A stretch of DNA of 49,383 nucleotides from contig JBDRCC010000002.1 of assembly GCA_043822065.1 (NCBI GenBank), positions 1-49,383 of the forward strand, given 5' to 3'. Below the pieces are notes generated by a model. That model was not told the DNA's origin and did not search any database. It saw only the letters and a list, made by a program, of their open reading frames with translations. Shown in pieces: positions 25,598 to 28,516 of this stretch. The position numbers were made by a program, and so were the translations under genes. The stretch's first letter is position 1. Every line of letters begins with the position of its first letter. Source of the DNA: an archaeon. GTDB taxonomy: Archaea > Undinarchaeota > CAZHTU01 > JBDRCC01.

Positions 25598-25865
25598 GAC
25601 CACCACCGAGCCAGGCCCGATATCCGGGGCATTAAACACCATAGACAAGCTGCTTAACGTATTTGACAACATAGTCGCTGCGATAGTATGGGTAAACGCC
25701 CAGTTCGCATCCCTTGGGCTCACGCAGCCGCAGATTTACGCAATACTAGGCATAATCGCGCTTGTGGCATTCCTCTTCTCCCTCAGGTTCTTTGAGATAA
25801 TTTCCAAGGTGCTTATAGTCGGGCTGATACTGTTTGTGGTAGTAAGCATTTTAGGGATAGTCTGA
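25584..25865 (+). CDS. Small membrane protein
   Basis: GGAGG before ATG 25584; hydrophobic C-terminal helices; TGATG coupling to the next gene. Confidence 0.72.
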   Translation: MAGNETTTEPGPISGALNTIDKLLNVFDNIVAAIVWVNAQFASLGLTQPQIYAILGIIALVAFLFSLRFFEIISKVLIVGLILFVVVSILGIV

Positions 25866-26410
25866 TGCCAGTATATCAGCCAAGAGAGGACTCGTTCCTT
25901 ATTTTCAACAGCATGAGGATACCTGCTGGCGCAGATGTCTTGGACATGGGAACCGGCACTGGCCTCCTGGCGATTGAGGCAGCGCGAAGGGCGAGACGGG
26001 TTGTCGCGGCTGACAAGTCGCATGAGGCAGTAGAGTACACCAAGAGCGCCTGCAGGCGGATGAACGCCAGAAATATAGAAGTAATCCAGAGCGACCTCTT
26101 TGAGAAGGTGGCTGGGCAGTTTGACGTCATACTGTTCAACCCGCCGTACTTGCCCGCGGACGCAGACCCGCGGTCCAACGACGCGGCATGGACCGGAGGC
26201 GAGACCGGGCAGGAGGTAATCTGGAGGTTTGCCAGGGATGCGCGGGAGCACCTTAAGGAGAGCGGCGCGATATTCCTGGTCGTCAGCAGCCACACCGGGA
26301 TAGACGAGACCGCCAAGATGCTCAAGGACATGAAGTATGCAGTAAGCGCCGTGGCAGAGGAGCGCTTCAGCTTTGAGAAGCTGGTGCTGCTAGAGCTGCG
26401 GGCAGTATAG
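25865..26410 (+). CDS. mtq2: HemK2/Mtq2-type N5-glutamine methyltransferase
   Basis: VYQPREDSFL, VLDMGTGTG, SDLF, FDVILFNPPYLP, WTGGETG. Confidence 0.88.
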   Translation: MPVYQPREDSFLIFNSMRIPAGADVLDMGTGTGLLAIEAARRARRVVAADKSHEAVEYTKSACRRMNARNIEVIQSDLFEKVAGQFDVILFNPPYLPADADPRSNDAAWTGGETGQEVIWRFARDAREHLKESGAIFLVVSSHTGIDETAKMLKDMKYAVSAVAEERFSFEKLVLLELRAV

Positions 26411-26412
26411 GC

Positions 26413-27561
26413 TTAGGATGGGCACTTTGAGACTTCGACGCTGGTGTATGCTGTCTTTTTCATGCCGTCGTGGGCAACCTCAACTATTGCCCTTGCCGGA
26501 TAGCCGCAGAGGCTTCTCACGCAGGCAGCATCGTAATAGTCGCGGTAGAACTCTAAGTAGTATGTGTTTTTGCCGGTAGTTTTTGAGCGAAGCAGGTTCC
26601 CGACCTTGCACATCTTGGTCGCGTCGCTCTGGATGTAGACTGTCCTGCCGAACTCCACCTTGAACGGCTCGCCAGCGAAGGAGCCGGCGTAGTTTAGCCC
26701 GCTGTACCTGTCCCCGCCGCTCGACGCGGCCTTGGTGTCAAGGCCCTGGTAGAGGCCGAGCTCGAAGGCATTGTCCAGCTGCATGACGGTCTCGTAGTAG
26801 GTCTTGTAGTCGTATATCATCGGGACCTGCTTTGCAACCGTGTAGTTTATGATACTAAGCTGGAAGTCGTCCTCGCTCTCGAAGGCATGAAGCTTTATCT
26901 TGGAGCAGATTGTCCGCGGCTTGCCGTTTGCAAGGTAGGTCAGCTTGCTTTCAATTGGGAATTCCCCTTCCTCGTTTGGGACTAACCGCCATATAAGATA
27001 GACATAGTCAGAGTCATAGACATCGTCGAGGTCCTTTGGGTCTATGACTTGGGAGGAGGTAATCGCATACTTGCTGCTGCTTTTGAGCTCGGCAGATATA
27101 TGCGTGAGCTTGTCCTTGTAGTTCGTCCGCCTTAGGCTGAGGCGCATCTCAAGGGGGCCGCCGACGTTGTACTCGTCATAGAACTCGCCGTAGTTGTACT
27201 GCTTTAGGTCGTACATGTGGATTTCAAAGCCGAGCTTCTCGAGCTCATTGAGGTTTGTAGGCTCGCACCATGTGCCTAAGTCTGCAGGCGGCTCTTCTGG
27301 CACGTCTGCAGGCGGCTCAGATGATGGCACGTCATCCGGAAGCGCATCGTCGGCAACATTAACATCGGTTCCATCGTCCGGCAGCTGGCTGTCCTGGCCA
27401 GTCGAGGGGGGTGAGGGCTCGTCCCGGTCACATATTGAGTTTGAGTTCTGGTCAAGGCAGCAGTCATAGGCTACCCGGATATACGGTGGACTGCATACTG
27501 GCGAGGATATGCAGCCAGCTACAACTACTACAAAAAGCACTGCAAAAAGCGTTATTTTCAT
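26413..27561 (-). CDS. Putative lipoprotein / surface protein with Cys-rich N-terminal motif
   Basis: MKITLFAVLFVVVVAGC lipobox-like; CSPPYI...CCLDQNSNSICDRDE; D/P-rich linker; beta-rich C-terminal domains. Start at ATG 27561. Confidence 0.8.
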   Translation of the reverse strand: MKITLFAVLFVVVVAGCISSPVCSPPYIRVAYDCCLDQNSNSICDRDEPSPPSTGQDSQLPDDGTDVNVADDALPDDVPSSEPPADVPEEPPADLGTWCEPTNLNELEKLGFEIHMYDLKQYNYGEFYDEYNVGGPLEMRLSLRRTNYKDKLTHISAELKSSSKYAITSSQVIDPKDLDDVYDSDYVYLIWRLVPNEEGEFPIESKLTYLANGKPRTICSKIKLHAFESEDDFQLSIINYTVAKQVPMIYDYKTYYETVMQLDNAFELGLYQGLDTKAASSGGDRYSGLNYAGSFAGEPFKVEFGRTVYIQSDATKMCKVGNLLRSKTTGKNTYYLEFYRDYYDAACVRSLCGYPARAIVEVAHDGMKKTAYTSVEVSKCPS

Positions 27562-27647
27562 TGATGCACCCCGGAACACCCGAGATATCTGCGGGCAGAT
27601 TTATATAATTTAGCTATGCCAGTTTTTGGACTCCTGGGTGGGCGGCT

Positions 27648-27660
27648 AAAAATGAAAAAG
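27648..27660 (-). terminator. U-rich terminator after the structured RNA
   Basis: Minus strand CTTTTTCATTTTT right after the closing stem. Confidence 0.6.
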
Positions 27661-27661
27661 T

Positions 27662-27849
27662 GCCGCGTTAATGAGAGGGAATGTACTTGCGACCCGAAGG
27701 CCGTTTTCCACTATTAAACGCACCCCGAAGGATGCGAAACCCAACACCCCATGCAAACCCGAAGATTTGTTAAGCTTGGCCGAAGCCAAACCAACGGGAG
27801 TTTTATGGACCAAAACCCGAAAGCCTTGAGCCATATTACCTAACGCGGC
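27662..27849 (-). ncRNA. Unclassified structured RNA (~190 nt) with five UUCG-capped hairpins and a closing stem
   Basis: 5' GCCGCGUUA pairs with 3' UAACGCGGC; five stem-loops with UUCG loops and G-U pairs that form only on the minus strand; upstream TATA and downstream U-tract. Confidence 0.78.
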
Positions 27850-27871
27850 TTTAACACTAAATAGAATATTG

Positions 27872-27886
27872 TTTATACGTGTTTCG
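27872..27886 (-). promoter_or_regulatory. Putative BRE/TATA promoter of the structured RNA
   Basis: Minus strand CGAAACACGTATAAA; the TATAAA (27877-27872) ends ~23 nt before the first base of the closing stem. Confidence 0.6.
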
Positions 27887-27940
27887 TAGAATTGGCTAAA
27901 AACAGAATTATTTTCAATAGTGAAAAGAATAAAAATGGCC

Positions 27941-28516
27941 CTAAAGGACGTCACAGCGCCGGACTGCAATAATCTTTATGGGGTAGATTTTTGAGGCGCG
28001 CTTTGTTATCTTTGCCTGAATCTTGCCAAAGACTATGTCCTGTATCAGCTGGCCGCCGGAGACCTCTTTCGCAGCCTGCTGCATCTCCTCGTCGATTATC
28101 CTGCTTATCGCCTTCTTCTGCTTTACGTCTATCCGCTTTGAAACTGTCGTAATGACCTTGACCTTCAGCTTCTTGTCGCCGAAAGGGACAGTGGAGAACT
28201 GCATGAACTTGTCGCCCCTGCGCCGTACCATCGAGCGCTCGTAGTCCCGGGTTATCTCATGGCGGACGAAGTCAGTTGAACAGACATCCCCCTTGACTTC
28301 GAGAATCCTGAAAAAGAGCTTGTGCCTCTGCTTCTTGAAGTCGCGCACGTCTCCGCTGAGGTCAGAAAGGGTCGTCTCAATTATCCTGCCGACGAGGAGC
28401 TTCGGGTCAGAAGCGATGGTCTGGCCGATGTACGAGCCGCCAAAGGCATCTGGTGCCTTGACGTCGTACCACTGCTTAAGCTTCCATGGGTCCTTGACGG
28501 TCTTTGCTGTTGCCAT
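27941..28516 (-). CDS. rps3ae: 30S ribosomal protein S3Ae (eS1)
   Basis: KDPWKLKQWYDVKAP..FG, LVGRIIETTLSDLSGD, KLFFRI, DYERSMVRR, KIYPI. Confidence 0.95.
   Translation of the reverse strand: MATAKTVKDPWKLKQWYDVKAPDAFGGSYIGQTIASDPKLLVGRIIETTLSDLSGDVRDFKKQRHKLFFRILEVKGDVCSTDFVRHEITRDYERSMVRRRGDKFMQFSTVPFGDKKLKVKVITTVSKRIDVKQKKAISRIIDEEMQQAAKEVSGGQLIQDIVFGKIQAKITKRASKIYPIKIIAVRRCDVL

Follow-up and report, generated by a model that had tools for sequence, protein, structure and literature searches.

What kind of gene follows the ribosomal protein genes rps15 and rps3ae in an archaeon of the phylum Undinarchaeota? The stretch of DNA that raises this question, referred to here as the window, comprises 49,383 nucleotides (nt) of contig JBDRCC010000002.1 (assembly GCA_043822065.1), and the element under study lies at positions 27648-27886; window coordinates are used throughout and the element is read on the minus strand, 5' to 3'. 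An original prediction, made from the sequence alone, had described here an unclassified structured RNA of about 190 nt with five UUCG hairpins and its own promoter and terminator. The analysis presented below indicates that the element is very probably a real, independently expressed and unclassified structured RNA gene, which specifies a 189-nt RNA (27849-27661, minus strand) in which a closing stem of 9 base pairs (bp) encloses five different UUCG-capped hairpins. The explanation taken as a whole, that of a genuine gene for a stable and abundant small RNA that founds an unclassified family and has a scaffold or decoy role, is slightly favoured, and the scaffold or decoy mechanism specifically is put forward as a tentative proposal that may well prove wrong.

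The source genome (G000) is a 1.03 Mb assembly of 22 contigs, 82% complete, and its phylum belongs to the DPANN lineage. The genomes of DPANN archaea are very small, and hardly any of their non-coding RNA has been explored; a separate gene kept for a highly structured RNA, together with an RNA contig of high depth, suggests a function relevant to the cell that annotation has missed. If a protein partner or an activity were found, the element would stand for a new ribonucleoprotein (RNP) in archaeal biology and for a natural RNA built almost wholly of UUCG-capped helices, with the caveat that many lineage-specific orphan RNAs exist.

Architecture and fold of the RNA

The architecture of the RNA is given by the following parts:

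27661-27849, minus strand: mature RNA of about 189 nt, from 5' GCCGCGUUA to UAACGCGGCA 3', read and then folded
27849-27841, minus strand: closing stem P1, 5' strand GCCGCGUUA, pairing probability 0.92-1.0
after the 5' strand of P1, minus strand: linker GGUAA, ahead of hairpin 1
27835-27804, minus strand: hairpin 1 of the fold, UAUGG-C-UCAAGGCU(UUCG)GGUUUUGG-U-CCAUA
27798-27748, minus strand: three-way junction domain P3, which encloses hairpins 2 and 3, both with UUCG loops
27792-27773, minus strand: hairpin 2, within P3
27769-27754, minus strand: hairpin 3, within P3, with a 6-bp stem
27736-27719, minus strand: hairpin 4, CGCAUCC(UUCG)GGGUGCG, pairing probability 0.94
27712-27680, minus strand: hairpin 5 domain, with lower stem AGUG/CAUU, internal loop GAAAA/CAAGUA and an apical hairpin
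27703-27690, minus strand: apical hairpin 5, CGGCC(UUCG)GGUCG, probability 0.95 (0.2-0.34 for the lower stem)
27679-27671, minus strand: 3' linker CCCUCUCAU, which precedes the 3' strand of P1
27670-27662, minus strand: closing stem P1, 3' strand UAACGCGGC, after which comes A27661, unpaired

The closing stem, the five UUCG hairpins and the three-way junction of the original prediction are each present at their minus-strand places, and the size of about 190 nt is that of the 189-nt RNA, since the span 27648-27886 also takes in the promoter and the terminator. The five hairpin loops all read UUCG, with a C-G closing pair in four of them and a U-G pair in the other, and the apical stem of hairpin 1 measures 8 bp. 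The linker CAAGUACAUUCCCUCUCAU lies in the 3' part of the element, ahead of the T-runs, and on the minus strand A27661 is directly followed by CUUUUUCAUUUUU.

Folding of the minus strand with ViennaRNA recovers the closing stem and all five hairpins, with a minimum free energy of -70.3 kcal/mol. This fold has a z of -3.76 and none of 200 shuffled sequences is as stable, whereas the plus strand reaches a z of only -1.46 and is equalled by 20 of 200 shuffles. Of the 57 pairs in the model 11 are G-U, which on the other strand become A-C mismatches, and thus the structure exists only on the minus strand. Both observations agree with the earlier reading of a structured RNA on the minus strand.

Pairing is predicted with probabilities of 0.7-1.0 in P1 and in the five hairpins, and of 0.2-0.5 in the helices that shape the 3' half; for this reason the helices that position hairpins 4 and 5 are considered tentative. 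In the same half, the CCC of the 3' linker may pair with the GGG at 27742-27740 (probability of approximately 0.49), which would create a second three-way junction in the model. The internal loop of hairpin 5 (GAAAA/CAAGUA, flanked by G-C, U-A, G-U and A-U pairs) may fit the AGUA/GAA pattern of loop E and sarcin-ricin motifs, and this putative loop-E-like element could be a protein site.

It is pertinent to consider how often such a cluster would be expected by chance. UUCG hairpins with a stem of at least 4 bp number 166 in the genome (both strands, 1,026,769 bp), and the sole genome-wide run of at least three of them spaced by no more than 120 nt is the element, with five. Arithmetic from the genome-wide counts gives a chance expectation of about 1e-7 for a cluster of five. 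The element is single copy in G000, which rules out a miniature inverted-repeat transposable element; many dispersed copies were what the original prediction had named as a possible refutation.

Expression signals and RNA-library contigs

The sequences that flank the RNA on both sides are those of a transcription unit:

within 27872-27886, minus strand: purine-rich stretch CGAAACACG, similar to a B recognition element, ahead of the TATAAA
27877-27872, minus strand: promoter TATAAA, at -28 to -23 from the first G of the stem and followed by 22 nt up to the stem
27660-27648, minus strand: terminator region C, UUUUU, CA, UUUUU, with T-runs at 27659-27655 and 27652-27648

A layout of gaaa(g/c)(g/c) plus a TATA-like box, about 22-30 nt upstream, is common to the 5S, signal recognition particle (SRP) RNA and RNase P RNA genes of G000, and several of its transfer RNA (tRNA) genes have a similar one. 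This agreement with the stable-RNA genes of the same genome supports transcription from the first G of the closing stem or from an adjacent base; the 5' end would accordingly be G27849 or a neighbour of it, a placement derived from promoter spacing only. At the other end, oligo-T is an archaeal transcription termination signal. The element thus has a promoter and a terminator of its own, as had been proposed: the TATAAA is spaced as at the 5S, SRP and RNase P RNA genes and a T-run follows the RNA.

A search of public sequencing runs led to four groundwater runs, whose contigs were compared with the window; the two RNA runs among them are metatranscriptomes of one study. A contig of one RNA run matches 27661-27744 with 0 differences at a word depth of 1271, a contig of the second RNA run matches 27661-27777 with 3 differences at a depth of 28.6, and a DNA-run contig matches 27554-27811 with 16 differences; the fourth run has no contig here. 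In both RNA contigs the Illumina adapter abuts A27661, the base between the closing stem and the T-run, and no CCA stands between the RNA end and the adapter. We read these junctions as the ends of many library fragments at a mature 3' end, from which all but one base beyond the stem has been trimmed. The RNA contigs cover neither the flanks nor the 5' 70-100 nt, and those parts carry no evidence, be it on the 5' end or on whether rps3ae is silent. As for the transcript that the original prediction called for, its 3' part is covered by RNA-library contigs that stop at A27661, which alone are no proof of transcription.

The strain contigs also reveal how the RNA varies. Six substitutions fall inside it, three in predicted pairs, one in a loop (UUCG to CUCG) and two in linkers. 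The three paired substitutions all keep pairing, given that G-U becomes G-C at 27692 and at 27773 (U>C) and C-G becomes U-G at 27699; consequently, none of the six breaks a pair. No double compensatory change is seen within the species.

The counterpart in a second genome and the tests against known families

A counterpart of 352 nt is located on the minus strand at L008:675-324 in G001, an Undinarchaeota genome of the same order, whose Rps3ae protein is 46% identical to that of G000. Its first 8 nt (GCCGCGUU) and its last 8 nt (ACGCGGCA) are identical to the termini of the G000 RNA, and TTTTTCAT stands directly 3' of the RNA in both genomes; in G001, UUUUUCAU comes next after the RNA. A TATA-like box is found at -29 to -22, again with the gaaa(g/c)(g/c) type of layout. 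The G001 RNA has seven C/UUUCGG loops and about nine hairpins, compared with five in G000, its fold has a z of -3.33, and its only Rfam match is a noise match of 10.3 bits. Like the G000 RNA it is on the strand of rps3ae, here approximately 820 nt downstream of that gene, and an open reading frame (ORF) of the opposite strand comes in between. Taken together, the identical termini, the layout of promoter and terminator, the architecture and the location argue that the two RNAs are probably homologues.

Three G001 hairpins correspond to hairpins 1, 3 and 5 of G000. The apical stem of hairpin 1 is 8 bp long in both genomes; by reading, both partners are replaced in two of its pairs and one partner in two more, with no pair broken. 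In hairpin 3, compared with CCAAUC(UUCG)GAUUGG of G001, both partners are replaced in one pair and one partner in another. The two best local matches of a single-sequence covariance model (R1) in the G001 locus fall on the same hairpins (L008:492-511 for hairpin 1 and L008:427-443 for hairpin 3) and are collinear. G001 has an extra 5' domain of about 150 nt, absent from the G000 RNA, and the sequence of the 3' linker is not conserved in it. In sum, the terminal stem, the tetraloops and the loop-closing pairs are conserved between the two genomes, and the hairpin count, the sequences of the stems and the linkers vary.

Several searches were directed at further members. BLAST of the G000 RNA against 40 relatives gives 0 matches, and the G001 RNA, compared by BLAST with all 17 genomes of the phylum, gives only short matches with expectation values (E) of at least 0.1, the G000 RNA not among them. 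Over the same number of phylum genomes R1 finds nothing beyond G000 itself, and on 14 rps3ae loci, with filters off, its matches are weak, the best one (E of 0.026, in L020) being a tandem array and not a homologue. A MAFFT alignment of the G000 and G001 RNAs is too poor for a joint model. A scan for three successive UUCG loops across the phylum returns G000, G001 and tandem arrays, the remaining matches being unrelated on reading. In metagenomes, the pattern CCTTCGGGT...ATTCC...ACGCGGCA occurs in 15 stretches, none with a 5' GCCGCG partner and a UUCG cluster, and these were judged to be chance. A search with the 3'-end pattern in two other Undinarchaeota genomes, G002 and G003, finds no homologue, and none of 80 rps3ae loci of other archaea has a UUCG cluster. 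The known distribution of this RNA family is therefore very narrow, namely two genomes of one Undinarchaeota order plus strain variants: the search for homologues by BLAST and in regions downstream of rps3ae, suggested with the original prediction, yielded the G001 counterpart and no third member.

The genes that surround the RNA are the following:

28989-28516, minus strand: rps15 (Pfam Ribosomal_S15, 3.9e-15)
28516-27941, minus strand: rps3ae (Pfam Ribosomal_S3Ae, 3.1e-51)
25865-26410, plus strand: methyltransferase (MTS domain, 4.4e-22; similar to RsmC, RsmD and PrmA), 1.2 kb downstream of the element and on the opposite strand

The stop codon of rps3ae is 92 nt upstream of the RNA, on the same strand, which agrees with the predicted place just downstream of rps15-rps3ae, and a gene of the Ham1 family is found further upstream on that strand. 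Downstream, an ORF of 388 amino acids has no Pfam match and a TATA-like box of its own. The short distance to rps3ae invites the view that the structure is a cis-acting 3' part of the rps15-rps3ae transcript (a stabiliser, a terminator or an insulator) and not a separate gene. This is highly unlikely: the element has its own TATA box, spaced as in other stable-RNA genes, the G001 RNA is separated from rps3ae by an opposite-strand gene and again has its own TATA-like box, and five extra-stable hairpins within a closing stem far exceed what a terminator needs.

The same two genomes allow a small protein-coding gene to be evaluated. ORFs lie over both RNAs (window 27646-27969, minus strand, 107 codons; L008:334-681, minus strand, 115 codons), and gene callers may annotate both RNAs as hypothetical proteins. 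An open frame runs through both RNAs, with GCC GCG TT in the same frame, and stop-free codons amount to 63 of 63 in G000, equalled by 290 of 5000 shuffles, and to 113 of 117 in G001, equalled by 112 of 5000. Nevertheless, BLASTP aligns no part of the G000 product with that of G001 even when E is allowed to reach 100, Pfam has no match for the G000 ORF, the UUCG loops fall in all three frames, none of the six strain substitutions is on a third codon position, the RNA contigs end at 27661, before the stop codon at 27648-27646, and the antisense strand of G001 is nearly as open (109 codons). Of all the explanations considered, that of a coding gene is regarded as the most improbable.

Having described the locus, we turn to the known families. 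With the 4227 models of Rfam 15 no match reaches the gathering score in the whole window; when 27500-28000 was searched at E up to 10, three matches appeared, all of about 16 bits or less and far under their cut-offs, the best being 16.1 bits against a cut-off of 70 for an unrelated small nucleolar RNA model. ARAGORN finds no tRNA or transfer-messenger RNA (tmRNA) gene in the window. The housekeeping RNAs of G000 are located elsewhere and none matches the element: archaeal SRP RNA (RF01857) at C21:58240-58507 with 105.7 bits, archaeal RNase P RNA (RF00373) at C6:45304-45609 with 131.1 bits, 5S at C7:31571-31692 with 97.4 bits, and, on C8, 23S ribosomal RNA (rRNA; model positions 1-2987 over 2952 nt) and 16S rRNA (model positions 1-1478 over 1472 nt). 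Since these RNAs are complete elsewhere, the element is neither a diverged stand-in for one of them nor a detached piece of rRNA. Box C has the consensus RUGAUGA and box D is CUGA, and an ACA box stands 3' of each H/ACA hairpin; on reading the sequence, no C, D or ACA box, K-turn or K-loop is found in a fitting place, and all the loops are UUCG. The absence of a tRNA, 5S, SRP, RNase P, C/D or H/ACA signature was part of the original prediction, and it is upheld by the Rfam and ARAGORN results, by the housekeeping RNAs found elsewhere and by the lack of boxes, just as the Rfam check proposed with it gave no significant family match.

Genome-wide, ARAGORN reports 34 tRNAs in G000, several of them with introns, none for Val and none for Ile-GAU; the sole call for Phe is a doubtful one that has an intron and the anticodon AAA. 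This odd set may reflect the 82% completeness of the assembly or unusual intron-bearing genes.

A member of a known family too diverged for Rfam to recognise has also been contemplated: a paralogue of SRP RNA, RNase P RNA or 5S, a retron RNA, or an HgcC-type RNA, which would be an orphan guide of TnpB. In the known stable RNAs of archaea, too, the two ends are brought together by a helix. HgcC (RF00062) is reported to lie at the 3' end of a tnpB element or of a palindrome-derived remnant (PMC4615843). In G003, a weak HgcC match (33.4 bits, cut-off 50) occurs right after rps3ae, and the G003 RNA shares the 11-nt string CCUCUCAUUAA with a linker of the G000 RNA. This string is found 5' in the G003 RNA but 3' in the G000 RNA, all three housekeeping RNAs score above their cut-offs elsewhere in G000, and neither HgcC, SRP, RNase P nor 5S matches the element at E up to 10 in G000 or G001. 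In addition, a Pfam search of nine neighbouring ORFs reveals no transposase or reverse transcriptase, and the 82%-complete genome has 0 RVT_1 matches. Such an origin is thus considered very improbable. The G003 match itself (L015:1253-1342, minus strand) lies some 160 nt after rps3ae, behind a TATA-like box, in a region that contains CCUCUCAUUAA.

A trans-acting antisense guide or chaperone, which would assist the maturation of rRNA or tRNA through its linkers or internal loops, is also improbable, although small guide RNAs are often found close to ribosomal genes, the element adjoins ribosomal protein genes and the same spot holds small RNA genes in sister lineages, specifically C/D-box-like copies in G011 and 5S in G002. 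With 16S, 23S, 5S, SRP and RNase P RNA the element has no Watson-Crick complement of more than 9 nt, a length that 186 of 200 shuffles reach or exceed; when the three long linkers are matched with the entire pre-rRNA region, the duplex energies are unremarkable (equalled by 3, 28 and 8 of 40 shuffles); no C, D or ACA box or K-turn is seen by reading; and the linkers are not conserved between G000 and G001. The complementarity of linkers to rRNA and pre-rRNA that was to be sought according to the original prediction therefore came to nothing beyond shuffles.

The small RNAs of the sister lineages deserve a brief description. In G011, box C/D-like repeats (CUGA ... GAUGAUGA ... CUGA) occupy L012:2170-2560 (plus strand), between rps3ae and a tandem array, and G016 has one copy at L024:180-245 (plus strand). 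In G002, of the same order and 72% complete, the 5S gene (L009:236-357, minus strand, 92.7 bits) lies about 1.1 kb downstream of rps3ae; a UUCG-rich counterpart was not found in this genome.

Possible role and likeness to known systems

The comparison of the two genomes guides the proposals about what the RNA does. That only the terminal stem, the loops and their closing pairs are conserved accords better with a multivalent RNA that binds protein than with an antisense guide or the core of a ribozyme, and the lack of conservation of the junction nucleotides argues against a ribozyme core. In the proposed mechanism, transcription would terminate in the T-run, and trimming of the 3' tail would then proceed as far as the stem and spare one A; with its blunt, G+C-rich closing stem and its extra-stable tetraloops, the RNA would withstand nucleases; and it would act as a protein-binding scaffold or decoy, presenting several similar UUCG-capped helices from multi-way junctions.

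A ribozyme whose multi-way junctions form an active site, and which possibly cuts itself after A27661, has the compact multi-junction fold and the conserved terminal stem on its side, together with the RNA contigs of the two runs (one study), which stop at A27661 with the adapter abutting. Set against this, G000 and G001 do not agree in their junction and linker nucleotides or in their number of helices, no self-cleaving family of Rfam matches, and trimming is a simpler account of the end, all of which leaves the ribozyme with very little probability. The original prediction had named scaffold, guide or ribozyme as the candidate functions; the guide tests (complementarity and duplex energy) were negative, and of the three a scaffold is the tentative choice.

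Several observations weigh against the preferred explanation, that of a stable RNA gene that founds a family and works as a scaffold or decoy. The RNA-library contigs do not alone prove transcription, and both runs come from one study. BLAST with either RNA fails to find the other, and the local matches of R1 in G001 reach only an E of about 0.5, so the homology is without statistical support from search tools. The GGAAU/AUUCC helix, which closes the junction in G001, has a probability of 0.004 in G000 and is about 4 kcal/mol worse there; being unsupported in G000, it means that the core architectures may differ. The RNA was found in 2 of the 17 Undinarchaeota genomes searched and a third homologue was not, the covariation evidence obtained from the sequences is thin, and what could be called a class rests on two genomes and strain variants. 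No candidate for a partner protein was found next to the RNA in both G000 and G001. Finally, the UUCG loops are explicable by selection for stability alone, and one strain has CUCG; given that stability alone can keep UUCG, the conservation of the loops is no proof that a protein reads them.

With these points in mind, every test run agrees with the reading of the original prediction as regards a stand-alone structured RNA gene, which is supported. Its further claim, that of a new archaeal non-coding RNA class, stands in that the RNA is unclassified and has a counterpart in G001, and is limited in that the class amounts to two genomes and strain variants. The element belongs to no described family, and no description of such an RNA was found in a search of the literature on non-coding RNA of archaea, DPANN archaea and Undinarchaeota and on HgcC; "new" thus means outside the described families, and not a demonstrated new mechanism.

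A different kind of RNA occupies the same locus in other genomes of the phylum. Downstream of rps3ae in G005, G012, G016 and G011 there are tandem arrays of three to five stem-closed units of 59-115 nt, 17 units in total, with the pattern UUGGA..GGUGGGAGA..UUCG hairpins..GAAC..UCCACU:

L018:2823-3191, plus strand: tandem array
L020:803-434, minus strand: tandem array
L024:359-655, plus strand: tandem array
L012:2910-3164, plus strand: tandem array

In all four genomes the array is directly upstream of an NTP_transf_2 gene that resembles the CCA-adding enzyme, and the arrays have no Rfam match. They are similar to the element in their location by rps3ae, in a terminal stem of about 9 bp followed by A-C-U, in their UUCG caps and in their purine-rich internal loops; in contrast, they consist of separate units, each with its own closing stem and GGUGGGAGA...GAAC motif, and G000 has no such units. 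Homology between the element and the arrays is not established, and an alignment of 13 of the 17 units is too poor for a model.

As a side observation, L029:1330-1690 (plus strand; G011:C10) contains a tRNA gene followed by approximately 280 nt that are rich in G+C and in UUCG loops, with the repeated sequence GGGCCCACCAA, and that look like a structured RNA.

The arrays bear on the notion that the RNA is a tRNA-like processing mimic, in which the closing stem stands in for an acceptor stem and the unpaired A for the discriminator base, the ends are cut by RNase P and tRNase Z, and tRNA-binding enzymes are perhaps engaged. In the RNA contigs the 3' end falls exactly one base, an A, beyond the 9 bp of a G+C-rich stem; GCCGCGU-UA, the sequence of the 5' strand, has the U8 and A9 that are common in tRNAs; and four other Undinarchaeota have the arrays of stem-closed units ending in ...CCACU directly upstream of a cca-like nucleotidyltransferase gene. 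On the other hand, ARAGORN calls no tRNA or tmRNA here, and by reading there is no T-loop, no D-arm pairing and no 7-nt anticodon loop; CCA is absent between the RNA end and the adapter; a one-base overhang could equally arise from trimming by a 3' exonuclease, and the 5S gene of G000 also ends in ...stem-A|CUU; and the cca-like gene of G000 is on another contig, with no such RNA beside it. Mimicry of a tRNA is, on balance, a doubtful explanation.

A broader and equally doubtful possibility is that the element is one form of a phylum-wide, fast-evolving and abundant RNA class at the rps3ae locus, whose acceptor-like stem plus A would engage the tRNA-end or CCA machinery as a decoy, a regulator or a scaffold. 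Within this class, and as part of the same long shot, the closed multi-hairpin RNA of G000 and G001 would be one form and the tandem arrays by the cca-like gene, in two other families, the other. If true, this would amount to a new kind of RNP in DPANN archaea.

Four known systems can also be compared with the element. The resemblance to a retron (msr/msd) that the original prediction had pointed out consists of a G a little downstream of the 5' arm and of the terminal inverted repeats (the 9-bp stem, a feature not peculiar to retrons). This resemblance is not sustained: the element has no long msd hairpin, no neighbouring ORF is a reverse transcriptase and the assembly yields no RVT_1, and it sits at a conserved chromosomal site, by ribosomal protein genes.

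The Y and vault RNAs are alike in form, with about 100-200 nt, a terminal stem made from both ends, a variable interior and a presumed scaffold role. They differ from the element in that no TROVE protein was found for it in G000 (Ro/TROVE PF05731, 0 matches in the 82%-complete genome) and no Rfam Y or vault model matches it; neither family is known to be established in archaea.

The archaeal SRP, RNase P and 5S RNAs differ from the element in that it has no model match and is not universal (2 of 17 genomes). They resemble it in the promoter layout that they have in G000, in the helix that pairs the ends and in the trimmed 3' end.

The last comparison is with the bacterial RNAs of the CsrB/RsmZ type. 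Their loop is GGA and that of the element is UUCG, a motif of stability at which proteins rarely bind, and the element has in addition a conserved terminal stem that closes the whole; moreover, no CsrA-like partner is known in archaea. As to the likeness, RNAs of this type have many hairpins with the same short loop motif, whose number varies between species, their stems and linkers drift and their loops stay, and they are abundant, stand-alone RNAs with their own promoter and terminator. The element, for its part, repeats one loop motif over hairpins whose number varies, its stems and linkers are not conserved, and by analogy it may be likened to these sequestering small RNAs.

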